Below are positions 36,387 through 56,172 of a stretch of 64,000 nt of DNA, piece by piece (the first letter of the stretch is position 1; every line of letters begins with the position of its first letter). Source of the stretch: an uncultured Clostridia bacterium (GTDB lineage Bacteria > Bacillota > Clostridia > TANB77 > CAG-508); contig CALYAA010000001.1 of NCBI GenBank assembly GCA_944393385.1, forward strand, positions 48,221-112,220, in the 5' to 3' direction. Both the position numbers and the translations under genes were made by a program. The notes under the pieces are model-generated. The model had not been told where the DNA came from and ran no database searches. It saw only the letters and a program-made list of their open reading frames with translations.

Positions 36387-36399
36387 ATAGGAGAAAAAA

Positions 36400-39373: not shown

Positions 39374-39381
39374 TAATTAAA

Positions 39382-39410
39382 GGCGGAAAATTTTTCCGCC
39401 TAAGTTTTTA
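39382..39410. terminator. Terminator closing the polysaccharide cluster (bidirectional)
   Basis: AGGCGGAAAATTTTTCCGCCT followed by AAGTTTTTA. Confidence 0.8.
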
Positions 39411-39438: not shown

Positions 39439-40152
39439 CTACTCAACCACCTCAAACAAACCAAACCCCTGAGAATTCCTATTACCCAAGCCACAGTCAT
39501 ACAAAAAAGACAAATAATCAGGAGAGCCACCCAATATAAAATTACCCTTCCAAGCAGTAATATAAACATTTTTCAAAGAAGTCACAACCTTATCAGAAGA
39601 AGAAACACAAGTAGTAATAATTTCAACATCAGAAAAAGGAGCAGTATTATAATAAGACAAAAACTTTTTACAAAAATTATTATTTATATATTGCTCAAAA
39701 TCTTTATCCTGAGGAGAAAGATAAACAGTTTTATTATCCTCAACTCTTTTAGACAAACAAATAGGAGAATTCATTTTAATATCAATACTATTTTCTCTAA
39801 TAACCCTATTTTCCAATTTCAAACTTACAGGAAAATTTTCAGTTCCAAAAGTAATTCCATTACATTTCAAATATTCATAAACAAGAAAAATAAAATAGCT
39901 ATCAACACTCCTTATTTCCAAAAAAACATTTCCAGTAAAAGTAATCCTTTTATTACTAATTGAATGTTTTCCACATAATGAACTAAAAGTAAAAAGCTTA
40001 AAATTTGATTCATTTTGTCCAACATCATGCAATAATTTTTGATAATGAATATCATTAGACAAAGCAGTATAAATTACGCCTTGTAAAATATGAGAATAAT
40101 TAATAGGTAAAGTCAAATTTCTATTTAAATTTATATAAACTTTTAATTGCAT
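39439..40152 (-). CDS. cas6: CRISPR-associated endoribonuclease Cas6
   Basis: Start MQLKVYINLNRNLTLPINYSHILQGVIY with a GGAGGAG RBS; C-terminal Gly-rich loop GLGNRNSQGFGLFEV; the track's longer ORF starts at a TTG at 40170. Confidence 0.85.
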   Translation of the reverse strand: MQLKVYINLNRNLTLPINYSHILQGVIYTALSNDIHYQKLLHDVGQNESNFKLFTFSSLCGKHSISNKRITFTGNVFLEIRSVDSYFIFLVYEYLKCNGITFGTENFPVSLKLENRVIRENSIDIKMNSPICLSKRVEDNKTVYLSPQDKDFEQYINNNFCKKFLSYYNTAPFSDVEIITTCVSSSDKVVTSLKNVYITAWKGNFILGGSPDYLSFLYDCGLGNRNSQGFGLFEVVE

Positions 40153-40239
40153 AATAATAATCTCCTCCAAAATATTAGTTCAATTATATCACATAAAAAT
40201 AAAAAAACAACAAAAACTATTTAATATTTAAATACATTA

Positions 40240-40248
40240 TGGTATAAT
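40240..40248 (+). promoter_or_regulatory. Extended -10 element (TGgTATAAT) in the divergent cas6 / NTPase intergenic region
   Basis: TGGTATAAT 39 nt upstream of the 40287 start. Confidence 0.4.
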
Positions 40249-40286
40249 TAAACAGACTTAATATAAAAATAAAAGAGGAAAATAAA

Positions 40287-42923
40287 ATGGAAAAATTAAA
40301 TCAAGAAACATATTCAAAACAATTCACAGACAGAGTAGAAGCAAGAGAGCTATTTTGGAAAGAATACCAAAAATTAAGCACTGAAATAAATGAGGGAAAA
40401 ACAGGAACCGACCCCACACAAACCAACCCCAAATTAATTAACTATTATGGAATTGGAGGAATGGGAAAAACCACATTAATAAACCAATTAATAAAAGAAC
40501 TTTCAAAAAATGACAAAGAAAATTTGTCAATATTTATTGATGCCGAAGATTTCAATAATACACTAGATGTTTTATATTCAATCAGAAATATTTTAAATGA
40601 AAACTACAAAATAAAATTCAACAAATTTGATCTAGCACTAATTATCTATTTAAAAAAAGTAGGAAAAAGTCAAGAATCTCCAGAAATAAAAGACATATTA
40701 AATAGTAATCCTATAGCAAAATTAATAGGAGACACAATTTCAAATGTATCTATTCCAATGTTATTAATAAAAAATGGATTAGACAAACTAATAAGTATAG
40801 GCATGAGTCAAAGGTACAAAAAATTTGTTCAAAGTATAGAAATAGAACAATTACCAAATAACATATTAGAAAACTTGCCACAATATCTTGCAGATGACAT
40901 AAATGAATATTTAAAAGGAAAAAACAAAAAAATAATATTCTTCTTCGATACATTCGAAAAATTAGATGAAAGCACAATAGGAAGTACAGCAACATTAAAT
41001 AAAACAAAATGGTTATATAATATTCGTAATACAGGAATAATAAACGAAATAAAAAACAGCATATTTGTAATAGGAAGTAGAGAAAAAATAAATGAAATTC
41101 CGGGAATTAAATATTTTAAACTAGATAAGTTTGATGAAAAATATTCATATGAATATTTAAATAATGCTGGTATTAAAGATATTAATTTATGTAAAGAAAT
41201 ATTTAATAAATATACAAATGGAATGCCATTAATGCTTAGTACATGTGTAGACAGTTATAATATAGAATCACATGAATTATTTGTACAAAATATATCTGAT
41301 AGCAGTCAAGGAATAATAGAAAGACTAATAGGAAGTTTAGACTTAGATAGTCAAGCACTAGTATATTTCTTAAGTTGTGTAAAAAAGTGGAATGATAAAT
41401 TCATTATAAAAAACGCTCCAAAATGTCTAGAAAACTTTTCAAGCTATAGATATGAAAGTATAAAAAAATTATCATTTATAACCAAAGACTTACAAGGAAA
41501 CTACACATTTGACAAAACAATTCGTATGATACTACATAGTGAAAATAATGAATTTGTAAATAATATGAAATACATAATTCAAAAAACAAATAAATTTCTA
41601 ATAGATTACTATAAAGAAATATTAGAAAACAGTAATTCAACAATAACAGAAAAAAATACAGCATTAAACCAATATATAAAAAGAAAAATTTTATTAGAAA
41701 ATAACCCAAAAGAACTAATAAATGACTATAAATTTATCAAAATACATTTAAAAGAACTAGAAGAACTGTTTTTATTTGACGATTTATCAAAACATCTAAA
41801 CAGATTACTTGAAAAATATAATAATATTATAGAAGTTAAAAATTCAATAATAGAAGAACAAATTAATATATTATATTTATCAGGTCAATATAAAGAAGAA
41901 GAATCAAAATCAAAACAATATTTTGACTTAGATCCAAAAAACACAAGAGCAATTGAAAAACTAGCAATTGCATATATGCATAACAGCAAATACAAATTAG
42001 CTAATGAAAAAATTAATGAAGTTTTAAACCAAACAGAAAAAACAGACCTAAAAAATTATATAAGAGTATTAATGGAAGCATCAGAAATCAAATCTCGAAT
42101 GGGTGAATATAATACAGTATTAGAAAATTACATATGGATAAAGAAAAAACTAAATACAATATATGAAAAAAATGATTTATCTAAAAAAGAACTTGAAATA
42201 GAAAGACTTATAGCCAAAACATATTCATATATGGGAGATTATAAAAAAGCAATAGAAAATTATAAAAAAATATTAAATATAAATGGAGATGAAGTTATAC
42301 AATTAGAACAAAATAAAGAAATTTTAACAATTGATGAATTAAATTTTTACAATGATTTAAGTAATACATATTCAAACAATAATGAATTTGAAAAGGCACT
42401 AAAAATAAAAGAAAAACTTTTAGAAATATATACAGAAATATTAGGAGAAAACCACCCTTGGACACTAAATGTAAAAAATGATATAGGAATGATTAAGTCA
42501 CATCAAAAAAACTATGAAGAAGCAATTAAAATCTTAAAAGAAACATATGAAGCAAGAAAACAAGTTTTAGGAGAAGAGCACTTATCTGCAATTGCAACAT
42601 TAAATAATTTAGCAATTGTTAAAGTATTTTATGCAGATGGCTTAACAGATGAGCTTAAGAAAAAAGAAATATATACAGATTCTTTGTTACAACTTGAAAC
42701 TGTATACAAAATAAGAAAAAATAATTTAGGTGAAAACCATCCAAGTACATTAAGAACATTATTTAATATTTCAAAAAATTTAAAAGAACTTGGAAGAAAG
42801 CAAGAAGCATTACAAATAGCACAAAAACTTTACGAAACCAGAAAAAGTACTTTGGGAGAAGAAAATCAAGAAATAGTAAAAACAAAACAATTAATTGACG
42901 AAATTAATTCTTTAAATGCCTAA
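40287..42923 (+). CDS. STAND/NB-ARC-like P-loop NTPase with a C-terminal TPR array
   Basis: Walker A GIGGMGKTT (40450-40476), Walker B-like IIFFFDTFEKLDE, and a C-terminal about 350 aa of TPR-like repeats (NHPWTLNVKNDIGMI, EEHLSAIATLNNLAIV, ENHPSTLRTLFNISK). Confidence 0.75.
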   Translation: MEKLNQETYSKQFTDRVEARELFWKEYQKLSTEINEGKTGTDPTQTNPKLINYYGIGGMGKTTLINQLIKELSKNDKENLSIFIDAEDFNNTLDVLYSIRNILNENYKIKFNKFDLALIIYLKKVGKSQESPEIKDILNSNPIAKLIGDTISNVSIPMLLIKNGLDKLISIGMSQRYKKFVQSIEIEQLPNNILENLPQYLADDINEYLKGKNKKIIFFFDTFEKLDESTIGSTATLNKTKWLYNIRNTGIINEIKNSIFVIGSREKINEIPGIKYFKLDKFDEKYSYEYLNNAGIKDINLCKEIFNKYTNGMPLMLSTCVDSYNIESHELFVQNISDSSQGIIERLIGSLDLDSQALVYFLSCVKKWNDKFIIKNAPKCLENFSSYRYESIKKLSFITKDLQGNYTFDKTIRMILHSENNEFVNNMKYIIQKTNKFLIDYYKEILENSNSTITEKNTALNQYIKRKILLENNPKELINDYKFIKIHLKELEELFLFDDLSKHLNRLLEKYNNIIEVKNSIIEEQINILYLSGQYKEEESKSKQYFDLDPKNTRAIEKLAIAYMHNSKYKLANEKINEVLNQTEKTDLKNYIRVLMEASEIKSRMGEYNTVLENYIWIKKKLNTIYEKNDLSKKELEIERLIAKTYSYMGDYKKAIENYKKILNINGDEVIQLEQNKEILTIDELNFYNDLSNTYSNNNEFEKALKIKEKLLEIYTEILGENHPWTLNVKNDIGMIKSHQKNYEEAIKILKETYEARKQVLGEEHLSAIATLNNLAIVKVFYADGLTDELKKKEIYTDSLLQLETVYKIRKNNLGENHPSTLRTLFNISKNLKELGRKQEALQIAQKLYETRKSTLGEENQEIVKTKQLIDEINSLNA

Positions 42924-42950
42924 AATCTGGTATAAGAAAGGAAACAAAAT

Positions 42951-43907
42951 ATGACAGAAATAGAACAAAAAATTCTTAACACAAAAGAAAGTAAAATAGT
43001 ATTAACAGAAAATATAGAAGAAGCAGATTTAATAACACATAATGGAACATTTCATTCTGATGAAGTTTTTAGTACAGTATTACTTTCCAATGTTCTGAAA
43101 AAAGATATATTAAAACTATGTAGAACTTCAAATATAAAAGAAGGTATAACTGGATTTGTATATGATGTAGGCTATGGAAAATATGATCACCATCAACCAG
43201 GGGGAAATGGAGAAAGAAAAAACGGAATAAAATATTCTTCATTTGGATTAGTATGGAGGGATTTTGGAAAAGACTACTTAAAACAACTAAATTGCTTACA
43301 AATTGAAGAAGTATGGTCTATGGTAGACAAAAAATTAGTACAAAATATAGATGCAATAGATAATGGTCAACTTGGGAAATTGACACAATTTGATTTTGAA
43401 GTAGTAACACTACCAAATTTAATTTCAATGTATAATTCTAATTGGGATGATGAACAAGCAAATCAAAATGAAATGTTTTTAAAAGCTGTGCAATTTGCAC
43501 AAACAGTTTTTGATAGATTTATAATAAGTGTAGTATCAAAAATTAGAGCAAAATCTAGAGTAGAAGATGCAATAGAAAATTCTAAAAATCAAATTTTAAT
43601 ATTAGAAAAATTTATGCCATGGAAAGAATTTCTATTAGATTCTGAAAATGAAAAGGCAAAAAATATTTTATTTGTAGTGTTCCCGTCAAATAGAGGTGGA
43701 TATAATGTATATGCTGTTCCAAAAGAAAATGGAAGTTTTGAATCTAGAAAATTATTTCCAGCAAAATGGGCAGGTTTAAAAGATGAAGAACTTTCAAAAA
43801 TTTCCGGGGTTGCAACAGCAACATTTTGCCATACAGGAAGATTTATATGTGCAACCAGAACAAAAGAAGATGCAATTAAAATTGCAAGAATAGCAGTAGA
43901 AGCATGA
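42951..43907 (+). CDS. MYG1/UPF0160-family metal-dependent hydrolase (predicted 3'-5' exonuclease or phosphodiesterase)
   Basis: Signature ITHNGTFHSDEVFS (43038-43064) and DHHQ; 318 aa. Confidence 0.7.
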   Translation: MTEIEQKILNTKESKIVLTENIEEADLITHNGTFHSDEVFSTVLLSNVLKKDILKLCRTSNIKEGITGFVYDVGYGKYDHHQPGGNGERKNGIKYSSFGLVWRDFGKDYLKQLNCLQIEEVWSMVDKKLVQNIDAIDNGQLGKLTQFDFEVVTLPNLISMYNSNWDDEQANQNEMFLKAVQFAQTVFDRFIISVVSKIRAKSRVEDAIENSKNQILILEKFMPWKEFLLDSENEKAKNILFVVFPSNRGGYNVYAVPKENGSFESRKLFPAKWAGLKDEELSKISGVATATFCHTGRFICATRTKEDAIKIARIAVEA

Positions 43908-43921
43908 AAGGAAAAATAAAA

Positions 43922-45700
43922 ATGAATAAAAGATATCTAATAACTGGAGTAAGCGGGGTAGATCCATATACAAATATATATTTAGTACCACAAATAATTA
44001 CAGAAAAAATAATAGATGATGGAAGTAAAATAGAAATAAAGTACAAAAATAATAAAGATACTAAAATTCCACAAGAAGTAAAATTAGATGAAATTTTTAT
44101 AGATGGTTCAATGCTTAACATATTAAGAAAATATATAAAAAATGGTAATCCAATTACAGATATATATATTTATTTAACACAAGAAATGAAAAAAAGAACA
44201 CAAATTTATGAAACATCAATAAAAAATCTATATGAAAGTAATGGTATTAATAATTTTAATATAGTATTTTACCCAAATGATTTTTATGAAGAGTGTGAAG
44301 AAAGATTTAGAGCAGATGATGTGCAAAAATTTGCATCATATTACAAGGAAATTTATGAAATATATTCTAAAATTATAAAACAAGGTAATTCAGATGAGAT
44401 AATACTTAATATTTCATCTGGAACACCAGCATTTAAAGCAGATATGATGATTATGGCAGTTACAAACAATTTGAAAATTGAGCAAACAGCAAATTCTATT
44501 GAAAGTAAAGATTTAAAAAATTATGTTATGCAAAAAGAAAAAGTACTATATGATGATATTAAGCAAAAATTAGAAGATGCTAAATTAAATTATAAAGATG
44601 CAAAAACAAAAATACAAATTGAATCAAGACAGATAAAAGATTTTCAATTAGACAAAATTAATGAACAATTAGATTTTTTAAATGAAACAGAAAATTCCTT
44701 AGAAACAAGAACTTCAAGAGAAAGTATAGATGAAATAAAAAAGATAATATTGCTTGAAAGCATTGAAGATAGTATACAGAAAAAGGATTATTGTGGTATT
44801 TACTACAATTTAATAAGCAATGAACAATATTTAAAAAATAATAAACAAGAATTATTAGAAATAGCAGGAAATTTATATTATAGATATATTGGTAATGACG
44901 AAAAAGCAAAAAAAAGTATTCAAAATAATGAACAAAATAATTTAGAAAATTATTATCCAATTTATAAAGCAAATTCAATAAAAAATTGTACTGATGATGT
45001 TAAAGAAGATATAAATGCTATTATAGAAAAAAGTAATATTATGAAAATAAAATCTCAAAGAGAAGAAATAAATGATTGGTTACTTATTAGTACACCATTA
45101 ATAGAAGCAATTTCAAGTTTAATAGTAACTCAAAAAACTAAATTTGATTTTGAAAATATAATAAGTAAATCTAATAATAAAACAACAATTTCATTAAACT
45201 TATTTAATAAAACAGCACCAAAAGAAATAAAAGAAAGGTATGAAAAAGTTGTAAAAGAGAGTGATAATAATTTCTTAAATGCGTATTTCTATAAAAATAT
45301 AATTTTTCAAATGTTAAAAACAACTGATAAACAAGAAGAAAAAGACAATATAAACAAAATACTTGATTATATTTATATAGTAGATTTAGCAAGAACAGAA
45401 AGAGTATCTGCAGCACATAGTATTCAAAATATTAGCAAAAATGAATTTGAAAGATTATATAAAGATAAACTATTAAAACACAGTAGATATTATAGCTTAA
45501 AAAACATCACTCAAAATTATATAAACAAACAAGCAAACCAAAGCATAAAATGTGTTGAAAGAGCTGTAAAAGAATTAATTGCTAATATTTTACCAGATAA
45601 TAGTGAAGAAACAATCAAATGTTTTGAAGAAAGTATAAATATATATAATACACTAGAACAAAAAATTATTAAACTTTTAAAAGATGAAATATATAATTAA
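43922..45700 (+). CDS. CARF-HEPN protein (Csm6/Csx1-like)
   Basis: N-terminal CARF-like motifs RYLITGVSGVDP and LNISSGTPAFKADMMIMA; C-terminal HEPN-like R-X4-H (RVSAAH at 45401-45418); the track ORF begins 18 nt earlier. Confidence 0.65.
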   Translation: MNKRYLITGVSGVDPYTNIYLVPQIITEKIIDDGSKIEIKYKNNKDTKIPQEVKLDEIFIDGSMLNILRKYIKNGNPITDIYIYLTQEMKKRTQIYETSIKNLYESNGINNFNIVFYPNDFYEECEERFRADDVQKFASYYKEIYEIYSKIIKQGNSDEIILNISSGTPAFKADMMIMAVTNNLKIEQTANSIESKDLKNYVMQKEKVLYDDIKQKLEDAKLNYKDAKTKIQIESRQIKDFQLDKINEQLDFLNETENSLETRTSRESIDEIKKIILLESIEDSIQKKDYCGIYYNLISNEQYLKNNKQELLEIAGNLYYRYIGNDEKAKKSIQNNEQNNLENYYPIYKANSIKNCTDDVKEDINAIIEKSNIMKIKSQREEINDWLLISTPLIEAISSLIVTQKTKFDFENIISKSNNKTTISLNLFNKTAPKEIKERYEKVVKESDNNFLNAYFYKNIIFQMLKTTDKQEEKDNINKILDYIYIVDLARTERVSAAHSIQNISKNEFERLYKDKLLKHSRYYSLKNITQNYINKQANQSIKCVERAVKELIANILPDNSEETIKCFEESINIYNTLEQKIIKLLKDEIYN

Positions 45701-45719
45701 AAGAAAGAGAGGATTATAA

Positions 45720-47255
45720 ATGGAAGATAATAAACCATATATTGCAATTTATGATGTAAGAGGAATTCAAAATTACATATTCAGGACAAATGCTGTAAAA
45801 GAGATAATTGGTGCTTCTAAAATAGTTGACAAACTTATTATAAATGAATTTGCATATGCTACAAATAAAATTAAAACTGAGAAAGAAATTAAAGAAGATG
45901 AAATTGTATTAGATTGGGATAAACAAAAAGAGTATCTATTTGATACAAACTCAAATATAAAAATTGAAGTTTTATATTATGGAGGAGGAAATTTAGTAGT
46001 ATTATTTAGAAATGAGGAATTGTGCAAAACTATAAGTATAGAAATGGCAAAAAACATTATAAAAAATGCATATGGACTATCTTTGGTATATGCATATACA
46101 GAAAAAACACAAGATTATAATGATGATTGGGTAAAATTAAAGCAAAAATTGTCAGAAATAAAGGCTGTAACCTCACTAAATAAACCTGCTGGAATACTTC
46201 CAATAGTTAGATATGATGGTGTAACAGGAAAACCTTTATCAAAAAAATATGATGGTAAAATGGTTATTTATGAGGCATATCAAAAACTAAAAAAAGCAGA
46301 AGAAGTGGCTACAGAAAAAAGTGAATATATAAAAGAATTTGACAAAATGAGAACATCTAATGAAGAAGGTTTAATTGCAATTGTACATATTGATGGTAAT
46401 AGCATGGGTGCAAATATAAGAGAAATAATGAAAGATACAAATACATATCAAGAGGCAGTATGCAAAATGAGAGAAATCTCAAGAAATATTCATGAAGTTT
46501 TTGAAGTAAAAGCTATAAATAGTGTAAAAGAAAAAATAAATTATATATGTAAAAAACATGATATAGAAATAAAAAATAATGAATTACCATTTAGACCAAT
46601 TATACAGGCTGGTGATGATATTACATTTGTATGTAATGAGAGAATTGCATTAGATATTGTAAAAGAATATATAAATTCAATAAAAAAAGGTTTTATGTAT
46701 GAGCAAAAATATGAATTTAGTGCTTGTGCTGGAATTGCTATTGTACATAGTCATTTCCCATTTTATAAAGGATATCAAATTGCAGAACAATGTTGTGCAA
46801 TTGCAAAAATAAGAGCCAAAAATGAGGGAATGGTAAATGGTAAAATTGGCAACTTTGTGGATTTTGAATATTGCTATTCTGGTAATACAGTGGAATTAGA
46901 GGATTCTAGAAAAAGAAATTATTGCAATATAGAGGGAATTAATTTATTAAAAAGACCTTATGGAATTTATAATGAAGATGAAGTTTTAAATGAGACTCAA
47001 AAAAATTTTGATTTAAAAGTTTTTGAAGAAGATATGCAAATGTTAAAAGGTATTTCTAGAGGAACGGCAAAAGCTTTTAGAGATGTTTATTATAAAGAAA
47101 TTGCAATAGTTAATACATTATTTAAAAGACAAGAAATAAAAAATGGAATATCTTATAAAAATCCTTTTAAAGAGGTTAATGGCAAAAAATATGCAGAATA
47201 TTTTGATTGCTTAGAAATGTTAGATATATTTGGTGTAAAGGAGGAAGAAAAATAG
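45720..47255 (+). CDS. Minimal Cas10-like cyclase/polymerase palm-domain protein (no HD domain)
   Basis: IAIYDVRGIQNYIF and YYGGGNLVVLF (Cas10 palm-1-like); VHIDGNSMGANI and QAGDDITFV (palm-2 with GGDD-like AGDD at 46621-46629); 511 aa. Confidence 0.65.
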   Translation: MEDNKPYIAIYDVRGIQNYIFRTNAVKEIIGASKIVDKLIINEFAYATNKIKTEKEIKEDEIVLDWDKQKEYLFDTNSNIKIEVLYYGGGNLVVLFRNEELCKTISIEMAKNIIKNAYGLSLVYAYTEKTQDYNDDWVKLKQKLSEIKAVTSLNKPAGILPIVRYDGVTGKPLSKKYDGKMVIYEAYQKLKKAEEVATEKSEYIKEFDKMRTSNEEGLIAIVHIDGNSMGANIREIMKDTNTYQEAVCKMREISRNIHEVFEVKAINSVKEKINYICKKHDIEIKNNELPFRPIIQAGDDITFVCNERIALDIVKEYINSIKKGFMYEQKYEFSACAGIAIVHSHFPFYKGYQIAEQCCAIAKIRAKNEGMVNGKIGNFVDFEYCYSGNTVELEDSRKRNYCNIEGINLLKRPYGIYNEDEVLNETQKNFDLKVFEEDMQMLKGISRGTAKAFRDVYYKEIAIVNTLFKRQEIKNGISYKNPFKEVNGKKYAEYFDCLEMLDIFGVKEEEK

Positions 47256-49375
47256 TGAAAAAGAAATTACAAATAAAATTAAAAAGTGATTTATGTGCTG
47301 GATCAGGTGAAAGCTTAGGGAGTTTAATTGATACTGATATTTGTTATGATTGTTTTGGACTAGCATATATTCCTTCTAAAAGACTAAAAGGTTTATTAAA
47401 AGAAGCATTTATAGAATATTCTGATTGGGCAAAAAATGAAAATAATACAGAACTTTTTGATAAAATTAATAAAAACTTATTTGGAGTTGAAAATTCAAAT
47501 AATTCTAGTAATTTAAAAATAGATAATGCATATTTGGAAAATACAGATTTAATTGAAAATGAAATTCAAAATGTTGAAAATAGATATAAAAAATATTTAA
47601 CCAAACAAAGAATAATAAATTTAAATACAGATATAAGATATCAAACAGCTGTTGTAATTGAAAGTGGTGTTGCAAAAGAAAATTCTTTAAGAAATATAAG
47701 AATTATAGAAGCAGGAAATATTTTTGAGGCTATTCTAGAATGTGATACTGAAGAAGAATCACAAATATTAGAAAAATGTGTTAAATTAGTAACACATATG
47801 GGAAATAATAGAACAAGAGGATTTGGTGAAATAGAATGTAAGCTTTTGGATATGGAAGAGGAAAATCAGGAATATGTAACACATAAATTCGAACCAGAAA
47901 AAGAATATGAGATTAAATTAATTCTAAAAGCTGAATCAAATATAATGGTATCAAAACAGTTTTCTGAAATTACTGAAAATTATATTCCTGGAAGTAATAT
48001 AATGGGTAGTTTTGCATCTAAATACATAAAAGATAATGATATAAATGATTTTGAAAATTTAACAGATGAATATATTAATTTATTTTTAAATGGAAATGTA
48101 AAATATTCAAATGCATATATTACAGAAAAAGATGGATATGTTCAATATTATCCTGCTCCATTAAGCTATTCAAAAGTTAAAAATAAAAGCAAAGTTTATC
48201 ATAATAAAATGTTTGACGTTAATGAAACTGATATACAACTTTCTAATTTTGGAGATAAATTTGTTACATTAGATGAAAACAATTATGTTAAAGAGGTAGA
48301 TACAATAGAACATTATCATCATCAAAGAGCAAAAGATTTATCAATAGGACATGTTTCAACAGGAAATGATGGAGGAACATTTTATCAATTTTTAAGTATA
48401 GAAAAAGGTCAATATTTTATGACCAGTATTAATGGAAAAGGTAAATATTTAGATAAATTAAGTAAATATTTAAAAGAAAATGAAATCTTAAGAGTTGGCA
48501 AATCTAAAACAGCTGAATATGGAAAACTAAAAATAACAAATATAAAAATTTCTGAAGATATAGAAAAAAGAAAAAAATATAATAAATTTGCAGTTATTTT
48601 AACTTCAGCTCTAATTTTATTAGATGAAGAAAATGTTCAAATTGCAAAAGATAAAGAAACACTTATAAAAACATTAAAAAATTTATTTAAAAACGAAAAT
48701 TTAAAAGATGTTAAATCATTTATAGGTTACACAGAAGAATCAGGATTTAATGCTATTTGGAATTTACCAAAAGAGCAAGTGGTTTCGTATTCGGCAGGGA
48801 CAACTATAGTTTTTGAATCATCAGAATCAATTGAATTAAAAGAAAAGTATATAATTGGAGAAAGAACAAATGAAGGATATGGACAACTAATTGTTTATTC
48901 TTTAGATGAAAAAAATGATTCTACATTAAAATTAAATGAATATAAACAAAACGAAAAAGAAATAGAATATAGTAAATTAAACAAAGAAACAAGAAAATTA
49001 CTTAATAAATCCATAAAAAAGGTAATTAATGAAGAAATATTAGAAAATGCTTTTAATACAGTTACATCAAATTATAATAAAGTAAATATAAATAATACAA
49101 CAATAGGAAGAATTTTATTAATGTTAAAAGAATCAAAAAATTATGCTGACTTTGATGAAAATGTAAATGGAATAAAAGATGTAAAAAAATTAGATAATGT
49201 TATAAAAATAATAGAAAATAAAGATAGAATATATTCTTTACAAGCATATAAAGATTATGAAGACGGATTAAAAAGTATTACAGGAGTAATACAAGAATCA
49301 GAAAAAGAAAAATTTATATTAGAATATATAAAACAATTTTTTACAATTTTAAAGATAATGGGAGGTAAAGAATAA
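47255..49375 (+). CDS. Large RAMP protein (Cas5/Csx10- or Cas7-like) with a C-terminal helical extension
   Basis: GTG start after an AAGGAGG RBS (the track ORF starts 48 nt earlier); N-terminal LCAGSG...YIPSKRLKGLLKEAF RAMP G-motif; Gly-rich loop NEGYGQL; the last about 150 aa are helical. Confidence 0.65.
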   Translation: MKKKLQIKLKSDLCAGSGESLGSLIDTDICYDCFGLAYIPSKRLKGLLKEAFIEYSDWAKNENNTELFDKINKNLFGVENSNNSSNLKIDNAYLENTDLIENEIQNVENRYKKYLTKQRIINLNTDIRYQTAVVIESGVAKENSLRNIRIIEAGNIFEAILECDTEEESQILEKCVKLVTHMGNNRTRGFGEIECKLLDMEEENQEYVTHKFEPEKEYEIKLILKAESNIMVSKQFSEITENYIPGSNIMGSFASKYIKDNDINDFENLTDEYINLFLNGNVKYSNAYITEKDGYVQYYPAPLSYSKVKNKSKVYHNKMFDVNETDIQLSNFGDKFVTLDENNYVKEVDTIEHYHHQRAKDLSIGHVSTGNDGGTFYQFLSIEKGQYFMTSINGKGKYLDKLSKYLKENEILRVGKSKTAEYGKLKITNIKISEDIEKRKKYNKFAVILTSALILLDEENVQIAKDKETLIKTLKNLFKNENLKDVKSFIGYTEESGFNAIWNLPKEQVVSYSAGTTIVFESSESIELKEKYIIGERTNEGYGQLIVYSLDEKNDSTLKLNEYKQNEKEIEYSKLNKETRKLLNKSIKKVINEEILENAFNTVTSNYNKVNINNTTIGRILLMLKESKNYADFDENVNGIKDVKKLDNVIKIIENKDRIYSLQAYKDYEDGLKSITGVIQESEKEKFILEYIKQFFTILKIMGGKE

Positions 49376-50634
49376 TGATTAAATCAAGAATTTATTTTTA
49401 TATTAGAATGGAATTATTATCTCCTATATCTATTGGTAGTGGTGATGATTTTATTACAGATCATGATTGTTTAAAAAATAGTAAAGGAGAGCCATTTATA
49501 CCAGGTACATCATTTGCAGGAGTGTTTTCTCATTATTTAAATAATGAACAAAGAGAAATATATACTCCAATGTTAAAAAATGATTATAAACAAAGCCCAT
49601 ATTACATATCAGATGCTAAAATATATTTTGATAATTCTGAAGAGAAAGTTCATACAAATATTAGAGACGGAGTAAAACTTGATAAATACAAAACAGCTGA
49701 AAAAGGTGCAAAATTTGATTTTGAAGTAGTAGAAACTGGAACAAAATTTGATTTTAGAATAGAAGTTATTGTAAGAGATAATGATGAAATTTCTAAAATG
49801 AAAGAAATAGTTGATATTATATTAAATGGTCTAAATAAAGGAGAAATCTTATTAGGATTTAAATCTAAAAGAGGATATGGTAAGGTTAAAATACTAGAAA
49901 CAAAAATAAAAGAATTTGAAAAAGGTCAAATAGAAGAATTACTTCAATTTAATAAATATGATATTAATAATTATAGTAATTACCAAATAAGTAATATAGA
50001 AAGTCAAAATAGATTTGATTATATAAAAGTTGATTTAAAACAATTAGGTGGAATAAGTATAAGAAAATACAGTGCAAAAGCTGGGAATGTTGATTTTGAA
50101 CATGTTACATCAAATGGTAAACCAGTTATTCCAGGTACTAGTTGGAATGGTTTAATAAGAAGACAATTATTAGAATATTTAAATAGTGATTTATTATCCA
50201 AATCTGGAGTTATATTATCAGATTGGTTTGGAAAAGAAAAAAATGGAGAACAAGAAGCTTCAGCTTCAAATATTATAATAGAAGAATCTAAAATTGATAA
50301 TTCTAAAAAAATTGATTTAACTAGAAATAAAATTGATAGATTTTCTGGTGGTGCAGCAAATAAAGCATTATTTTCTGAAACAGCATATTTTAATGGTACA
50401 ACAAGTCTTGGAATTAAAGTAAAAAAACATATAAAACAAGATGAAGATAATTCTAAAATAATTGGTTTAATAGCATTAGTTATAAAAGATATTGATAATG
50501 GTTTAGTAGCACTTGGAGGACAAACTTCAATTGGTAGAGGTTTATTTAAAGTAGAAAATGTTACTATAAATGGACAAGATATGGATTTAAATGATGCAAT
50601 AAACAATATTCTTGGAGGTGTTACAGGTGAATAA
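49375..50634 (+). CDS. Tandem Cas7-Cas7 RAMP fusion
   Basis: Two complete units: ISIGSGDDF...FIPGTSFAGVF...KRGYGKV and KPVIPGTSWNGLIRR...GGQTSIGRGLFKV. Confidence 0.7.
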   Translation: MIKSRIYFYIRMELLSPISIGSGDDFITDHDCLKNSKGEPFIPGTSFAGVFSHYLNNEQREIYTPMLKNDYKQSPYYISDAKIYFDNSEEKVHTNIRDGVKLDKYKTAEKGAKFDFEVVETGTKFDFRIEVIVRDNDEISKMKEIVDIILNGLNKGEILLGFKSKRGYGKVKILETKIKEFEKGQIEELLQFNKYDINNYSNYQISNIESQNRFDYIKVDLKQLGGISIRKYSAKAGNVDFEHVTSNGKPVIPGTSWNGLIRRQLLEYLNSDLLSKSGVILSDWFGKEKNGEQEASASNIIIEESKIDNSKKIDLTRNKIDRFSGGAANKALFSETAYFNGTTSLGIKVKKHIKQDEDNSKIIGLIALVIKDIDNGLVALGGQTSIGRGLFKVENVTINGQDMDLNDAINNILGGVTGE

Positions 50635-51004
50635 AGATGAAATAATTAATTTAATAAAAACTCAAAATATAGAAAATGCAAATGTTTTAGGAATTTTTTA
50701 TAATAAAGTTTGCATTGGCGAATTTAATAATAATGAAATTATTTTTAATGAAGAAGTTAATTATTCATTATGTAATCAAATTAGAGTTTTTAATAAAAAT
50801 CTGGAATTAAGAATAATAGAAAAAGATGGTAAAATTTTAAACAAAAAAATTGATGATAATTTTGGTATAGATTATTTTGATGAATCTATGTTTTTAAGAG
50901 ATAATTTTGATAAAAGATTAGTTGTAAGAAATTATTTGAATACAGATAAAAATAATCAAGTAATTATTAAAGATTCTAGACTAGTAGAATTTGTTTCAAA
51001 TTGA
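50627..51004 (+). CDS. Small protein in the effector operon (candidate small subunit or unknown)
   Basis: 125-130 aa ORF with a GGAGGTG RBS, between Cas7 genes; the track ORF begins at a TTG at 50612, and the GTG at 50627 used here is my inferred start; no recognisable motif. Confidence 0.4.
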   Translation: MNKDEIINLIKTQNIENANVLGIFYNKVCIGEFNNNEIIFNEEVNYSLCNQIRVFNKNLELRIIEKDGKILNKKIDDNFGIDYFDESMFLRDNFDKRLVVRNYLNTDKNNQVIIKDSRLVEFVSN

Positions 51005-51033
51005 TTTACAATTATTAATATAAATAGCCTTAA

Positions 51034-53115
51034 ATGAAGGAGAAAGTGAAAAATATGCAAAATTTATATAATAAAAATAATTATAGACAAAATAACAATA
51101 AAAATAATAACAATAAAACTAGTAATAACTTAAAAGTTGACGAATCTGTAAAATATATAAATCCATATAATTTTATAAGTTTACCACAAAAATGTGAAAG
51201 AAAGCCAGAAAACGAGAGAAGAGGAGATTTAACAGGATATATTGAATGTGTTTTAACAACAAAAACTCTAACAATGGTTCCAGATACTAACAGTATAGAA
51301 GAAGTAAACATTGGAGATAATAAGAAATTAAAAAAATACAAATTTTTTAATTATGGAGAAATAAATAAAAAAGGTAATTTTACTATTCCAGTAATATCTG
51401 GTAGTGAAATAAGAGGAATGCTTAGAACAGATTATGAAATTTTTACAGATTCTTGTATGTCAACATTAGATGATGATGTAAAATTTATATCTAGAACTAA
51501 AAATGCAAAAAATCCAGGAATTTTAGAAAAAGATGATTCAGGAAAATGGCATTTATACAAAGCTGTAAGACATTCTTTACATACTTGTAGAAAAGGAAAA
51601 GGTGTACCTAGAAATTTAAATGGTAAAAATGAAGCAATTTATTTTGTAGATGAAAAAAATCAAATAAAAATAGGGGATAAAATATATAAAACAGGAGATA
51701 AAGTTAAATTTTCTTATAAAGAAACAACTTCAGCACAAATAGTTTTATCTATTGGTAGTGGAAATACTGAAGGAATATTATTTATAGGTGAATTAGGTGG
51801 TTCAAAAGATATAGATAAAAAAGGAAATAATAATATACATGATAGTATTTTTGTTAAACAAGATACAGAAGTTAAAATTTCTAATATATCAGAAAGTATT
51901 AATGAATTAAAAGAAATTTTGGATATGTATAATGATAAAGCATTTAATCAAAAAATAAGAGGTAAAAATAAAATTTGGTATGCAGGTTATGATATAGAAA
52001 ATTCTAAATATCTTCCTGTTTGGTATAGTAATCCAGATGATAAAAACAGAAGTTATTTATCTTTAGCAGCAATAGGAAAAGAAGCATATCATAGAAAATT
52101 ACATGAATTAGTTGGAGAATTTATGCCTTGTATTGATAAAAATAATATATGTAATGCATGTAATATGTTTGGCTTTGTATCAGAAAATGATGCAATATCT
52201 TCAAAATTACGTATATCTGATGCAATTTATGAAGAAGATGAAAATCCATATTATAAAACAATAGTAACAAAAGAATTAGCAAGTCCACATATTGCAAATG
52301 CAGCATTTTATGCATTATACGCTCCAAATACACAAACAGATAATCAACCACAAAATTTTGATTTTAATTATGACTTTGTAAATATATCATCTAAAAATGC
52401 AAAAGAAATTAAAAAGGAGCAAATTACAATAAGAGGAAGAAAAATATATTGGCATCATGATGATATACAAAGAAATATTATAACAAATGCAAAAGAAATA
52501 ACAGAAAGAAATTGTGAAATAACACCAGTAAAATCTAATATTAATTTTAAATTTAAAATATTTTTTAATAATATTAATCAACAAAATTTAAAAGAACTAA
52601 TAGCAGTATTAAATTTAAAATATAAAAATTTGGACTTATATCATAAAATAGGAAAAGCAAAACCATTAGGATTTGGAAGTTGTAAAATAGAAGTACAAAA
52701 TGTTTATATAAGAAATATAGAAAAAGTAAATGGAAAATTAGAATATTCTATGGTAAATTATGAAAAATATTTTAATACAACTTCTGTAAAAGATATAGCT
52801 TTAGATGTGTTTGATATGACAACTATACCAATGCAAGAAGCTTTAAAAATATTTGATTTTAATTATATAAAAAATAATTATAATGATGCAGTTGTACAAT
52901 ATCCAATAGGAGTAAAAAAAGGAAAAGAAGCAAGTATGTATTGGTTTATGCTAAATAAAGTAGTTGATCAAGGAAAAAATTATATTTTAATGGTATTACC
53001 ACGAATTATAGATGGAAAAAATGAAAAAGGAGAAGAAAAACAAAGAGATTTAGAAATTAATACAAAAAAATTAGGTTCAACAAAAGGCTTAATTTTACCT
53101 AAATATATTAATTAA
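51034..53115 (+). CDS. Cas7-family RAMP with a Zn-finger insertion and an N/K-rich N-terminus (Csm5/Cmr6-like)
   Basis: INPYNFISLP; G-motif IPVISGSEIRGMLR; CX2C...CX2C (CIDKNNICNACNMFG); terminal Gly-rich loop GKAKPLGFGSCKIEV. Confidence 0.7.
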   Translation: MKEKVKNMQNLYNKNNYRQNNNKNNNNKTSNNLKVDESVKYINPYNFISLPQKCERKPENERRGDLTGYIECVLTTKTLTMVPDTNSIEEVNIGDNKKLKKYKFFNYGEINKKGNFTIPVISGSEIRGMLRTDYEIFTDSCMSTLDDDVKFISRTKNAKNPGILEKDDSGKWHLYKAVRHSLHTCRKGKGVPRNLNGKNEAIYFVDEKNQIKIGDKIYKTGDKVKFSYKETTSAQIVLSIGSGNTEGILFIGELGGSKDIDKKGNNNIHDSIFVKQDTEVKISNISESINELKEILDMYNDKAFNQKIRGKNKIWYAGYDIENSKYLPVWYSNPDDKNRSYLSLAAIGKEAYHRKLHELVGEFMPCIDKNNICNACNMFGFVSENDAISSKLRISDAIYEEDENPYYKTIVTKELASPHIANAAFYALYAPNTQTDNQPQNFDFNYDFVNISSKNAKEIKKEQITIRGRKIYWHHDDIQRNIITNAKEITERNCEITPVKSNINFKFKIFFNNINQQNLKELIAVLNLKYKNLDLYHKIGKAKPLGFGSCKIEVQNVYIRNIEKVNGKLEYSMVNYEKYFNTTSVKDIALDVFDMTTIPMQEALKIFDFNYIKNNYNDAVVQYPIGVKKGKEASMYWFMLNKVVDQGKNYILMVLPRIIDGKNEKGEEKQRDLEINTKKLGSTKGLILPKYIN

Positions 53116-53135
53116 ATCATAAAAGAAACTGGCCA

Positions 53136-53176
53136 CATACATAAAGGCAGGAGCACAACTCCTGCCTTTATGTATG
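53136..53176. terminator. Strong bidirectional terminator closing the cas island and the convergent SASP gene
   Basis: Perfect 16-bp stem CATACATAAAGGCAGG...CCTGCCTTTATGTATG. Confidence 0.8.
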
Positions 53177-53388: not shown

Positions 53389-53589
53389 CTACTTCATGTT
53401 GTTTTCAACTTGTTGAATCATTTTTCTAACCATGTTTCCACCTATTTTACCAGCATCTTTAGCTGATATATCTCCATTGTAACCATCTTTTAATGTTACA
53501 CCAATTTCTGAAGCAACTTCATATTTGAATTTATCTAAAGCACTCATAGCTTCTGGTACTAATTTTTTGTTACTGTTTGAATTTGCCAT
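53389..53589 (-). CDS. Small acid-soluble spore protein, alpha/beta type
   Basis: KLVPEAMSALDKFKYEVASEIGV...GYNGDISAKDAGKIGGNMVRKMI; strong GGAGGTG RBS. Confidence 0.9.
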   Translation of the reverse strand: MANSNSNKKLVPEAMSALDKFKYEVASEIGVTLKDGYNGDISAKDAGKIGGNMVRKMIQQVENNMK

Positions 53590-54988: not shown

Positions 54989-56095
54989 ATGGCAATGAAT
55001 CCAATGCAAAAAAAAGCAAGAACATCATTTTTAACAGGAGTATTAATAACTTTATTAATAACAGGAATAATAATAGCAATACTATTATTACTTTTGAAAA
55101 ATATGAAAGATGAGCAAGACGCAACTCAAGCAGCTCTTGCTAGAGTATATGTTTTAAACCAGGATGTACAATCTGGTCAAGTACTTACAGAAGATATGTT
55201 TACATTAATGTCAGTAGACAGAAATACAATACCATCAAATGCTACATCAGTAGTAGAAGTTATAAGTGGATGGTATTTACAAACAGTTGAGGGAACAATG
55301 TTAAATACAGATGAAGATGGACTTTATTATGTAGATTCTGAAGGACAAACTGTTAGAGTTTACACAGAAGAGTCAACAGGAAATTTCTATACAGAAGATA
55401 GAAATGGAAATAGAGAATTTATTCAATTAAATAATGTACCAGTTTTAGCGAAAGTAGATATGAATGCTAATACTGTTATAACACCAGAGCTTGTGGTACA
55501 ATCTGATGCCGTTGTTACAGATGATGTAAGAACACAAGAATACAACATGATTGTTTTACCAGTAAATTTAGAAACTGGGGATTATGTAGATATTAGATTA
55601 ATGGCACCAAATGGTCAAGATTTTATAGTAGTATCAAAAAAACAAGTTGAAATTCCATTAAATAGTGATGGAACATATATAGCAGATACAATAAGATTAG
55701 ACCTAAGAGAAGATGAAATATTAACAATGTCTAGTGCTATAGTAGAAGCATATGGAATACAAGGAGCTAAATTGTATGCATCTAAATACAAAGAAGCAGG
55801 AATGCAAGATGCGGCAGTTCCTACATATAGACCAAATTCAGCAGTTACAACATTACTTGGAATTGACTCTAGTGGAAATATTACAAATCCAAATGTTGTA
55901 GAAGAAGCTAAAAATGAATTAAGAAGAAGATATCAAGCACCTGCAACAACTGCAAGAAATGAATATTTACAATCTGCAATAAATAGTGATCCATCATATA
56001 ATGCAAATGTTCAAACAGGATTAGATGAAAGTTCAACAAATGCTCAATCAGCAAGAAGAAATTATATTGAATCACTTGATGCAGTGGCAGAGTAG
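54989..56095 (+). CDS. CpaB/RcpC-like Flp-pilus assembly protein (N-terminal TM helix plus SAF-like domain)
   Basis: TM helix, then ARVYVLNQDVQSGQVLTEDMF, an architecture typical of CpaB. Confidence 0.6.
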   Translation: MAMNPMQKKARTSFLTGVLITLLITGIIIAILLLLLKNMKDEQDATQAALARVYVLNQDVQSGQVLTEDMFTLMSVDRNTIPSNATSVVEVISGWYLQTVEGTMLNTDEDGLYYVDSEGQTVRVYTEESTGNFYTEDRNGNREFIQLNNVPVLAKVDMNANTVITPELVVQSDAVVTDDVRTQEYNMIVLPVNLETGDYVDIRLMAPNGQDFIVVSKKQVEIPLNSDGTYIADTIRLDLREDEILTMSSAIVEAYGIQGAKLYASKYKEAGMQDAAVPTYRPNSAVTTLLGIDSSGNITNPNVVEEAKNELRRRYQAPATTARNEYLQSAINSDPSYNANVQTGLDESSTNAQSARRNYIESLDAVAE

Positions 56096-56172
56096 TAAAA
56101 AATGTGGGGGCATAGATAATATGCCCTTACTATGTGATAAATTTATAAACAATATACTGAAAGGATAATTAT

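Follow-up and report, generated by a model that had tools for sequence, protein, structure and literature searches.

A probable type III-Dv CRISPR-Cas module with MYG1-type and STAND-TPR accessory genes in an uncultured Clostridia bacterium

A type III CRISPR-Cas effector island with partly fused backbone subunits, a short Cas10 and neither array nor adaptation genes raises the question of whether it represents a new subtype, a decaying remnant or a known system in an unusual setting. Our analysis of the window (the whole stretch of 64 kb of DNA) supports with high confidence a III-D variant (III-Dv) interference and signalling module, encoded chromosomally by an uncultured Clostridia bacterium that is low in GC and forms spores. 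The module seems to be a complete, apparently functional copy of this already described variant in a gut Clostridia bacterium. The III-Dv type is thus known; the accessory MYG1-type phosphoesterase and STAND-TPR ATPase, in contrast, are without a described role in CRISPR defence.

Gene content and type assignment

Positions 39439-53176 comprise one tightly packed plus-strand operon and a minus-strand cas6 (Table 1). All ORFs named in the original prediction were found at the same coordinates. Two genes between cas6 and csm6 were absent from it, encoding a STAND NTPase-TPR and a MYG1/UPF0160 protein.

Table 1. Features of the island and its borders (window positions)
Feature	Position	Strand	Remarks
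Bidirectional terminator-like hairpin	39381..39401	.	stem of 9 bp including 5 GC pairs; called on each strand
cas6	39439..40152	-	237 aa from ATG; ORF reaches TTG at 40170
Promoter-like site TTAATA-16-TATAAT, extended TG	40221..40248	+	consensus match only; 39 nt upstream of STAND gene
STAND (NB-ARC-like) P-loop NTPase, C-terminal TPR repeats	40287..42923	+	878 aa; lineage-specific accessory gene
MYG1/UPF0160 family (DHH-superfamily) phosphoesterase	42951..43907	+	318 aa
csm6-family CARF-HEPN ancillary RNase	43904..45700	+	598 aa; ~100-aa insertion behind CARF domain
cas10 (III-D type, HD-less, palm-2 AGDD)	45720..47255	+	511 aa
cas7-cas5-cas11 fusion, Csx10-type Cas5	47255..49375	+	706 aa
cas7-2x, two fused Cas7 domains	49375..50634	+	419 aa
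csx19	50627..51004	+	125 aa; possible TTG start at 50612 gives 130 aa
cas7-insertion (TIGR03986 family RAMP, large insertion and Cys cluster)	51034..53115	+	693 aa
Perfect 18-bp hairpin, 5-nt loop	53136..53176 (stem 53136-53153/53159-53176)	.	read from sequence; right island border

The gene order cas10, cas7-cas5-cas11, cas7-2x, csx19, cas7-insertion, with csm6 upstream, is that of the Synechocystis III-Dv operon (PDB 8S9T). This layout has been described and its structure was solved in 2024 (PMC11026444; PDB 8S9T-8S9X), and the published operon likewise carries csm6/csx1 upstream (PMC11026444). PADLOC 2023 models matched every subunit, four of the five near full length. Chains of 8S9T were matched by sequence for four subunits, and two AlphaFold models aligned to 8S9T chains with TM-scores of 0.73 and 0.79-0.80. 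Homology and structure prediction identify the five single-copy-type subunits as predicted orthologues of those building the 1:1:1:1:1 Synechocystis complex. The proposed type III effector island was confirmed by these profile, PADLOC and structural comparisons, and the proteins encoded at 45720 and 47255-53115 proved to be Cas10 and RAMP homologues in profile or structure searches.

Cas10 carries DVRGIQNYIF, YYGGGNLVVLF and, at residues 297-300, AGDD. Its phmmer alignment to the Cas10 chain 8s9t_C begins at residue 7 (1.2e-19), PADLOC Cas10d was matched over 7-505 (4.3e-115), and the AlphaFold model (pLDDT 88.6) retrieved 8s9t_C/8s9x_C with Foldseek (E 3e-27, TM 0.79-0.80). The HD-less protein with AGDD postulated before is therefore real. 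D12, D225 and AGDD were kept in 95 of 95 loci, and AGDD was invariant in all 120 Cas10 homologues among the matches listed. In a by-eye residue comparison, palm 1 (D12-x-x-G-I-Q) resembles that of cOA-making Csm1.

The 706-aa fusion matched PADLOC Cas5_IIId over 2-703 of 709 (2.6e-171). Its tail, for which a fused Cas11 had been considered, forms six helices at residues 577-702 in the AlphaFold model and matched no Cas11 significantly by sequence; the full-length structural match supports its reading as a predicted Cas11-like helical domain. The tandem fusion of two Cas7 domains was likewise recovered in Cas7-2x, by matches to 8s9t_D Cas7-2x (1.2e-18), to RAMPs PF03787 in two stretches (1.1e-32) and to PADLOC Cas7_IIId (1.9e-116). 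Its D29, which aligns to Synechocystis D33, was kept in 75 of 78 loci and D240 in 76 of 76. Csx19 matched TIGR03984 (1.1e-14, 54.5 bits, cutoff 35) and PADLOC Csx19 (2.7e-14), and in identical contigs its product carries PF27799. Cas7-insertion matched TIGR03986 (7.5e-68, 230 bits, cutoff 161), PADLOC Cas7_IIId (1.5e-137) and, in the PDB, Cas7-11 (1.5e-18) and 8s9t_E (9e-7); its cluster C-x6-C-x2-C corresponds to C366/C373/C376. Cas6, with the C-terminus GLGNRNSQGFGLFEV, matched TIGR01877 (4.9e-34, 118.5 bits, cutoff 58.65), PF01881 (7.3e-31) and PADLOC Cas6b (7.9e-57), and its length of 237 aa is also what gene callers report for identical contigs. Homology and structure prediction make it the putative crRNA-processing nuclease.

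The mixture of fused and unfused backbone subunits, the short Cas10 with AGDD and the absence of array and adaptation genes had led to the view of an intermediate layout outside III-D. A new or intermediate type III subtype outside III-A, -B, -D and -E is exceedingly unlikely, however, because each subunit and the gene order match III-Dv (PMC11026444). Moreover, Cas10 without HD is the rule in III-D, with the domain in just 3%, and AGDD is a listed cyclase-motif variant of the active type, found in loci with effectors (PMC11229360). The comparison of gene order in relatives, which the original prediction had called for, recovered the same core operon in all of the 90-odd related loci examined. 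At the level of architecture the new subtype is refuted; the layout is that of III-Dv, gene for gene. A relationship to recently reported rare variants had also been suggested. It pointed in the right direction, but the clade is not rare, since at least 651 Cas10 homologue clusters were found at E<=1e-5, mostly from gut metagenomes. An identical Cas10 is present on 9 contigs.

Two strong hairpin terminators had been proposed as borders. The left one, called on both strands between a lytR-family gene and cas6, stood. The right hairpin exists 21 nt past the cas7-insertion stop but, lacking a T-tract behind it on the plus strand, escaped the terminator scan; possibly it serves the SASP gene on the minus strand (53389-53589), which is convergent. 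The promoter-like site upstream of the STAND gene is suggested as candidate operon promoter and no more, since the total of such sites did not exceed shuffled expectation.

Missing array and integrity of the module

As predicted, neither array nor cas1 or cas2 was detected in the 64 kb. TRF, a direct-repeat search, Rfam and a k-mer spacing scan found no CRISPR array, and the repeats of three relatives had no match in the window at up to 3 mismatches. Pfam revealed neither Cas1 nor Cas2 in the plus-strand ORFs from 100 aa upwards, in 4499-5443 or in the minus-strand SASP gene. A tblastn search of the window with Cas1, Cas2 and RT-Cas1 of relatives, which alone covered ORFs below 100 aa, was negative as well. 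In relatives at 59-79% Cas10 identity, arrays adjoin the operon, and RT-Cas1 occurs in two relatives (L018 and L091). Hence, the missing array is a derived trait, and its disappearance from beside the operon is particular to this lineage. It follows that crRNAs must come from an array elsewhere in the genome and are presumably supplied in trans, which is common for type III loci (PMC12669027). It also follows that activity of the module cannot be assumed.

The same loss, in a window where no repeat remnant was found, would fit an inactive, decaying remnant drifting since array and RT-Cas1 disappeared. We consider this quite unlikely. All nine reading frames are intact, cas6 is retained, and every catalytic residue is kept, with equivalents to the Synechocystis sites conserved in 75-95 related loci. 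In comparison with relative L001, which likewise lacks an array within 10 kb of the operon, eight of the nine genes in the island gave dN/dS values of 0.11-0.32 (dS up to 0.66), and cas6, which has few substitutions, gave 0.57. On these values, and judged from its sequence, the island is not a remnant; the pseudogenisation that would have spoken against the original prediction was not observed. Effector and accessory blocks have been exchanged between strains, which suggests ongoing selection.

Effector, accessory genes and proposed signalling

The Csm6-family protein matched PF22208 (6.3e-9), PADLOC CARF_HEPN (6.7e-22) and TIGR02672 (4e-28), in the last case with 98.6 bits, under the NCBIfam equivalog cutoff of 150. 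The single sequence had no PDB match. A profile of 10 orthologues retrieved E. italicus 6tug_A nearly full length (1.2e-20) and StCsm6' 8pcw_A (5.9e-20), and these cA6-type structures were the only Csm6 structures matched. The NxSSGTP motif and R500-x4-H505 are invariant. Since the upstream effector groups with cA6-activated Csm6 proteins, the signal is most likely cA6.

Signalling with SAM-AMP or another non-cOA nucleotide, degraded by MYG1 as by NrN in CorA systems, was also considered. One III-D2 Cas10 yields SAM-AMP and SAM-AMP2 (PMC13294483), DHH-family NrN phosphodiesterases of CorA loci degrade SAM-AMP (PMC13294483; bioRxiv 10.1101/270033), and the invariant G-to-A change in the palm is without explanation. 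Nevertheless, this appears very unlikely for a locus that lacks CorA, whose sole sensor-effector is of the CARF-HEPN, cA6-type Csm6 family and whose palm 1, compared by eye, resembles that of Csm1; the III-Dv prototype, too, produces cOA.

With cA6 as the probable signal, the module might act as follows. The crRNA would be held along the fused Cas7 backbone, by inference from the Synechocystis complex, which cleaves RNA at three Asp sites and whose cOA activates Csx1 (PMC11026444). D26 of the Cas7 in the fusion and D29 and D240 of Cas7-2x would cleave complementary RNA, with up to three cuts at a spacing of 6 nt. Binding of a non-self target would switch on the Cas10 palm (D225, AGDD) to form cyclic oligoadenylate, most likely cA6, which would activate the HEPN RNase, so that RNA would be degraded without specificity and growth arrested. 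More speculatively, the MYG1/DHH phosphoesterase could clear the signal or linear products as an off switch, and the STAND NTPase-TPR could be a regulator or partner.

MYG1 matched PF03690 over 2-317 of its 318 residues (4.6e-73) and the MYG1 exonuclease 24ah_A in the PDB (1.6e-27), with H30, D37 and D79-H80-H81 kept in 21 of 21 sequences. Its stop and the csm6 start share 4 nt, so that the two genes are translationally coupled. It adjoins csm6-cas10, with differing flanking genes, in lineages at 100, 80, 66-68, 63, 61, 60, 54, 48 and 35% identity. In L011 and L017 it is split or truncated and hence dispensable, and its linkage may be no more than loose. By analogy, MYG1 is a candidate signal-clearing enzyme. 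The STAND-TPR protein matched TPR_12 (5.7e-34) and NB-ARC (2.4e-5, 24.2 bits, cutoff 23.5), has the Walker A motif GIGGMGKTT and showed no N-terminal effector domain. Full-length homologues are found in the III-Dv loci L093 (73%) and L101 (56%) and a partial one in L010 (50%); TPR proteins also flank cas6 in L006 and L007.

Both genes thus recur in related III-Dv loci, although STAND-TPR, and possibly MYG1, could also lie outside the CRISPR system, as defence-island neighbours or a separate STAND-based (Avs-like) gene. PADLOC had no match for either, STAND-TPR is without a recognisable cOA sensor and shifts between positions upstream of MYG1 and downstream beside cas6, and MYG1 homologues at 57% and 50% identity stand alone in housekeeping contexts. 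We regard such independence as possible but rather doubtful. Both genes accompany the module in differing chromosomal contexts and share a strand with csm6; 27 nt separate STAND from MYG1, and the spacing between MYG1 and csm6 is -4 nt. Of the 11 identity groups listed for MYG1, 9 show linkage to CRISPR, STAND-TPR is syntenic with III-Dv in five lineages, and an association of STAND-TPR proteins with minimal I-E loci has been reported (bioRxiv 10.1101/270033).

Relation to known systems

Compared with the III-Dv system of Synechocystis sp. PCC 6803 (PDB 8S9T/U/V/X; Schwartz et al. 2024, PMC11026444), identity in structural alignments is just ~16-20%. The palm reads AGDD where Synechocystis has GGDD, protein lengths are slightly reduced (511 vs 575 aa and 706 vs 791 aa), and cas6, which lies downstream there, is divergent and located upstream here. 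Array and adaptation genes are not nearby, MYG1 and STAND-TPR are additional, and the effector is a putative cA6-type Csm6, whereas Csx1 was the effector tested there.

Like III-D2 (Cas7x3, Cas7-5, Cas10, CorA; SAM-AMP/SAM-AMP2; PMC13294483), the module has an HD-less Cas10, fused Cas7 and Cas5 and an insertion-bearing Cas7, and both belong to one evolutionary series that runs from III-D1 to III-E. In contrast to III-D2, the module encodes Cas7-2x and Cas7-insertion as separate proteins, possesses Csx19, has its Cas11 joined to Cas7-Cas5 and lacks CorA as well as a toxin-antitoxin module, and its CARF-HEPN effector points to cOA, not SAM-AMP. Cas7-insertion matches the C-terminal part of the III-E Cas7-11/gRAMP (Craspase) protein (E 1.5e-18) and Cas7-2x its middle. 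However, III-E consists of one protein, lacks Cas10 and Cas5 and signals via the Csx29 protease, whereas Cas10, Cas5, Cas6 and a cOA effector are retained here.

The effector resembles cA6-activated Csm6 of E. italicus (6TUG) and S. thermophilus Csm6' (8PCW) in its CARF-HEPN organization, CARF SSGTP and HEPN R-x4-H; its insertion sets it apart, and the ligand is inferred only. MYG1 is comparable to NrN and the ring nucleases Crn1-3, Csx16 and Csx20 by analogy only, as a small phosphoesterase beside a signal-activated effector. Its family differs from NrN (DHH-family, CorA-type III-B loci) and from all known ring nucleases, which act on cA4 and of which none is known alongside a cA6-type Csm6 (PMC12409355); in eukaryotes, MYG1 acts as a 3'-5' RNA exonuclease (PMC6582341). 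The STAND NTPase-TPR proteins of minimal adaptation-less I-E loci (Shmakov et al. 2018, bioRxiv 10.1101/270033) likewise combine a P-loop STAND domain with TPR in a CRISPR-Cas locus without adaptation genes. The CRISPR type differs, being III-Dv here, and the two STAND clades are likened by architecture and locus context.

Effector genes of the island

The locus is a type III-Dv module. It is located in an AT-rich (GC about 25%) chromosomal window that also encodes bipA, ftsEX, greA, lexA, hpf, a SASP gene and a long polysaccharide-synthesis cluster. Hairpins at 39381-39401 and 53136-53176, the second with a perfect 18-bp stem, border the island, and its plus-strand genes follow one another closely, at spacings of -8 to 29 nt. 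All genes listed in the original prediction were present, but the STAND-TPR and MYG1 genes had been left out.

Genes of the island (positions in the window)
Gene	Position	Strand	Product length
cas6	39439-40152	-	
STAND NTPase-TPR	40287-42923	+	
MYG1/UPF0160	42951-43907	+	
CARF-HEPN (csm6 family)	43904-45700	+	598 aa
cas10	45720-47255	+	511 aa
RAMP fusion (cas7-cas5-cas11)	47255-49375	+	706 aa
double Cas7 (cas7-2x)	49375-50634	+	
csx19	50627-51004	+	125 aa
RAMP (cas7-insertion)	51034-53115	+	693 aa

Every effector subunit was matched by PADLOC models. Cas5_IIId matched the fusion protein (2.6e-171, positions 2-703 of 709), and Cas7_IIId matched Cas7-2x (1.9e-116) and Cas7-insertion (1.5e-137). 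Among NCBIfam models, the fusion protein matched Csx10, the III-D Cas5; the 125-aa protein was identified as Csx19 (TIGR03984, 54.5 bits versus a cutoff of 35; also called by PADLOC), and TIGR03986 was matched by Cas7-insertion (230 bits versus a cutoff of 161). In the PDB, chains C, A, D and E of 8S9T, the III-Dv complex of Synechocystis sp. PCC 6803, were matched by Cas10, the fusion protein, Cas7-2x and Cas7-insertion. Cas7-2x, with two RAMP stretches, matched 8s9t_D at 1.2e-18, and Cas7-insertion matched 8s9t_E at 9e-7 and Cas7-11 at 1.5e-18. The Csx19 sequence found no match in the PDB. With their PADLOC matches, the four proteins matching 8S9T chains, encoded at 45720 and within 47255-53115, proved to be the Cas10 and RAMP homologues they had been taken for.

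The published III-Dv operon comprises cas10, cas7-cas5-cas11, cas7-2x, csx19 and cas7-insertion, with csm6 and csx1 upstream (PMC11026444). The effector genes of the window follow this order in one operon, in which the first three junctions overlap by 1, 1 and 8 nt and the last is a 29-nt gap, and the cas7-cas5(csx10)-cas11 fusion gene of the III-Dv definition is present. The same core operon order is common to about 90 related loci fetched in this study. The helical tail of the fusion protein (residues 577-702) is predicted to occupy the Cas11 position. A profile of the C-terminal 170 residues built from 23 orthologues found no Cas11 and nothing significant in the PDB; hence, the Cas11 assignment rests on structure.

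Family models, 8S9T matches and gene order all point to III-Dv and contradict the original prediction of an unclassifiable or intermediate subtype. The underlying observation was confirmed; its interpretation was only partly supported. The locus is a new member of the already known type III-Dv. By analogy with the Synechocystis complex, the five subunits would form a 1:1:1:1:1 complex on a crRNA of fixed length that would cleave RNA in 6-nt steps and synthesize cyclic oligoadenylate (cOA) in a target-dependent manner. The effector architecture itself adds little, since this layout has already been solved by cryo-EM and is included in annotation models.

Further features were recorded around the island. 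Just upstream, the polysaccharide cluster ends with a glycyl-radical enzyme (PFL-like plus Gly_radical, 33230-35230), accompanied by an acyltransferase and a radical-SAM activase-like gene (36400-37158; whole group 33230-37158). Just upstream of this cluster, a 1261-aa ORF (19183-22968) without Pfam match, which contains 2.3 copies of a 126-nt tandem repeat (22000-22285), may encode a surface protein. Downstream of the island, seven of the eight genes at 54989-63611 had no or only weak Pfam matches. One gene of this cluster encodes a SAF-domain protein (54989-56095), and another encodes a 633-aa protein that weakly matched T2SSE/P-loop ATPase (57736-59637); together the genes possibly specify a Tad/Flp-like system for pili or secretion. 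An intergenic region at 6729-6793 carries 2.3 tandem copies of a 22-nt unit ending in GAACCGACCCC, followed by (AGACA)4, and 1.9 copies of a similar unit, CAATTTTGGAACCGACCCCAAA, are located downstream of the island in the closely related locus L001 (17471-17512). The unit TTNNGAACCGACCCC was found twice in the window, allowing up to 1 mismatch, versus 0 in 100 shuffles.

Cas10, catalytic residues and mosaicism

Cas10 consists of two palm domains without an HD domain. The alignment to 8s9t_C begins at residue 7 and the PADLOC Cas10d match (4.3e-115) spans residues 7-505 of 511, which leaves no space for a further domain at the N-terminus. Foldseek comparison with III-Dv Cas10 gave TM scores of 0.79-0.80. 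An HD domain occurs in only 3% of III-D Cas10 proteins, and AGDD is listed among the palm-motif variants of loci with effectors (PMC11229360). AGDD was found in all 120 Cas10 homologues listed, down to 34% identity, and together with the metal-binding D225 it was retained in 95 of 95 related loci. Hence, the missing HD domain and the AGDD motif, which had been regarded as atypical, are real, but they are normal for the III-D group. At least 651 homologue clusters were obtained at E<=1e-5, mostly from gut metagenomes. The III-Dv layout with invariant AGDD is thus abundant in gut Clostridia and not a cyanobacterial curiosity. K148 of Cas10 was considered as the triphosphate-binding lysine that separates cOA makers from SAM-AMP makers, and was dropped after pairwise alignment with the Synechocystis Cas10.

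Catalytic residues of the RAMP subunits are likewise conserved. D26 of the fusion protein aligned to Synechocystis D26 and is conserved across relatives. D29 of Cas7-2x aligned to Synechocystis D33 (conserved in 75 of 78), and D240 in its second Cas7 domain (76 of 76) corresponds to Synechocystis D246 by motif position rather than by a tool alignment.

All nine island genes are full length compared with L001, a MAG contig labelled uncultured Clostridia. The dN/dS values against this locus were 0.11-0.32 for eight of the nine genes and 0.57 for cas6, in which substitutions were few. An identical Cas10, with flanks that are also the same, was found on 9 contigs that come from different samples. 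Judged from these sequences, the island does not look like a remnant; full-length frames, low dN/dS and catalytic residues kept across relatives speak against the pseudogenisation that had been considered.

Divergence is distributed unevenly along the island. Compared with L001, identity is 93-99% in the accessory block (cas6, STAND, MYG1 and csm6) and 67-87% in the effector block, which runs from cas10 to cas7-insertion; within csm6/cas10, dS rises abruptly from about 0.05 to about 0.6. The pattern is reversed in comparison with another related locus, L093, with 95-97% identity in the effector block and 73-82% in the accessory block. These comparisons indicate that both blocks recombine independently at one chromosomal site; the array-less lineage thus appears to swap accessory and effector blocks between strains.

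Csm6, MYG1 and the STAND-TPR protein

The Csm6-family protein has an N-terminal CARF domain (PF22208) and a C-terminal HEPN domain with an R-x4-H motif, and Cas_Csm6_HEPN matches were obtained for its orthologues. Both the CARF motif SSGTP and the HEPN residues R500/H505 are invariant among its relatives. It missed the equivalog cutoff of TIGR02672 (98.6 bits versus 150) and is therefore considered a Csm6-family relative, not a strict equivalog. A single-sequence search of the PDB with Csm6 gave no match. With a profile of 10 orthologues, two structures were matched and no others: Csm6 of E. italicus (6TUG, 1.2e-20, over nearly its full length) and Csm6' of S. thermophilus (8PCW, 5.9e-20), both of which we take to be cA6-activated enzymes. 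The Synechocystis III-Dv complex makes cOA, which activates Csx1. Since a cOA-making complex is thus known for this type and the only profile matches are cA6-type Csm6 proteins, cA6 is most likely the signal of the window module. In a III-D2 relative, the molecule made is SAM-AMP, which serves a CorA effector (PMC13294483).

MYG1 is a full-length member of PF03690 (4.6e-73, 247 bits versus a cutoff of 22.1, residues 2-317 of 318). Its DHH-type motifs HNGTFHSDE and YDHHQ align with those of the solved MYG1 exonuclease and were conserved in 21 of 21 sequences, and its stop codon overlaps the csm6 start. Homologues with 80, 66-68, 63, 61, 60, 54, 48 and 35% identity adjoin csm6-cas10 operons in neighborhoods that otherwise differ. 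Two of the CRISPR-linked copies are split or truncated, and homologues with 57% and 50% identity stand alone among housekeeping genes. No PADLOC model matched MYG1, and no publication connecting MYG1 to CRISPR or type III systems came up in a literature search.

According to a survey, no known ring nuclease accompanies effectors of the cA6-type Csm6 group (PMC12409355). This gap and the linkage to csm6 make MYG1 a candidate enzyme for clearing the signal or products, in analogy to NrN, a DHH-family enzyme of CorA loci. It seems unlikely, though conceivable, that MYG1, whose gene is translationally coupled to csm6, is a so far unrecognised ancillary enzyme of type III systems, a dedicated extrinsic off switch that degrades cA6 or else the A3>P and linear oligoadenylates produced by Csm6. 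In this reading STAND-TPR would be a second new accessory, for example one that regulates the array-less complex or works as its partner. If true, this off switch would fill the lack of a ring nuclease for cA6-signalling systems. The recurrence of a MYG1/DHH phosphoesterase beside cA6-type Csm6 offers a concrete and cheap biochemical test.

Two observations concern MYG1 neighborhoods in related loci. In L099 (298-1942), a MobC/NikA-like gene and a relaxase are located about 4 kb upstream of MYG1-csm6-cas10 (MYG1 60%, Cas10 70% identity), which suggests that a III-Dv module can sit on a mobilisable element. A conserved 111-aa ORF without Pfam match is found directly upstream of MYG1 in two lineages, in L009 (6608-6943; the same locus as L095) and in L101 (2858-3193), where the gene for the TPR protein precedes it. 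The window lacks this ORF and has a gap of 27 nt at the corresponding place.

The STAND NTPase carries the Walker A motif GIGGMGKTT and matched NB-ARC at a borderline 24.2 bits (cutoff 23.5) and TPR_12 at 116.6 bits (cutoff 30.1); neither an effector domain nor a PADLOC match was found. Five lineages have homologues with 50-73% identity, placed either next to cas6 or ahead of MYG1, with full-length versions in L093 and L101. Minimal I-E loci have been reported to encode STAND-TPR proteins (bioRxiv 10.1101/270033).

The missing array and comparison with other type III systems

No CRISPR array was detected in the 64 kb by TRF, direct-repeat search, Rfam or a k-mer spacing scan, the latter being used because TRF fails to detect CRISPR arrays here. 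Pfam searches found no Cas1 or Cas2 among the plus-strand ORFs of at least 100 aa, nor in two minus-strand ORFs, 4499-5443 and the SASP gene. Searching the window by tblastn with Cas1, Cas2 and RT-Cas1 from relatives yielded nothing beyond chance matches, and no remnant of the repeats of three related loci (L007, L009 and L010) was found with up to 3 mismatches. As originally noted, the window is thus devoid of array, cas1 and cas2 by repeat scans, Pfam and tblastn.

Within 10 kb, no array was found in the closest relatives L001-L003 or, by k-mer spacing scan, in the clade at >=87% identity. Among loci outside this clade that span 20 kb or more, 24 of 30 have an array within 10 kb. At 59-79% Cas10 identity, arrays are located directly after cas7-insertion or beside cas6 (L006/7, L009, L010, L015, L017 and L018). 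Absence of the array is a derived trait of the window's lineage and leaves the class of the effector module unaffected. RT-Cas1 fusions (RVT_1 plus Cas_Cas1) and arrays occur downstream of the effector operon in two related loci (L018:17292-19178 and L091:15042-16469). The ancestor of the module therefore probably acquired spacers from RNA, and RT-Cas1 and array were lost in the window's lineage. In [Clostridium] polysaccharolyticum (L012:2885-5393; Cas10 37% identical), cas1-cas2 are followed by 2449 N in the stored record, a stretch in which the array of this locus probably sits.

Recruitment of crRNAs in trans is well documented for type III loci (PMC12669027). A complete interference and signalling module under purifying selection without an adjacent array is a natural case in which to study such a supply. 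Arrays that would fit it are those whose repeat resembles GTTTCAAATCTCTA(A/T)TGAGTAA..TAAAAC and those of type I-B. The derived array-less state and the association with MYG1 and STAND-TPR give the locus modest interest.

In contrast to the window, which has neither within 64 kb, the III-Dv prototype of Synechocystis has an associated array and adaptation genes. Three other type III layouts with fused subunits were considered and rejected. Type III-E is a single fused effector (Cas7-11) without Cas10 or Cas5, whereas the window has separate cas10 and Cas5-containing genes, and NF041225 reached 42-111 bits versus a cutoff of 700. Type III-I (Cas7-11i) combines three fused Cas7 domains and Cas11 with an extremely diverged Cas10; NF049957 reached 27-29 bits versus a cutoff of 800, and the Cas10 of the window is readily recognisable. 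Type III-D2 has Cas7x3 and Cas7-5 fusions, usually with CorA, which was not found among the locus genes. In contrast, the window encodes Cas7-2x, a separate Cas7-insertion, Csx19 and a Cas11 fused to Cas7-Cas5.
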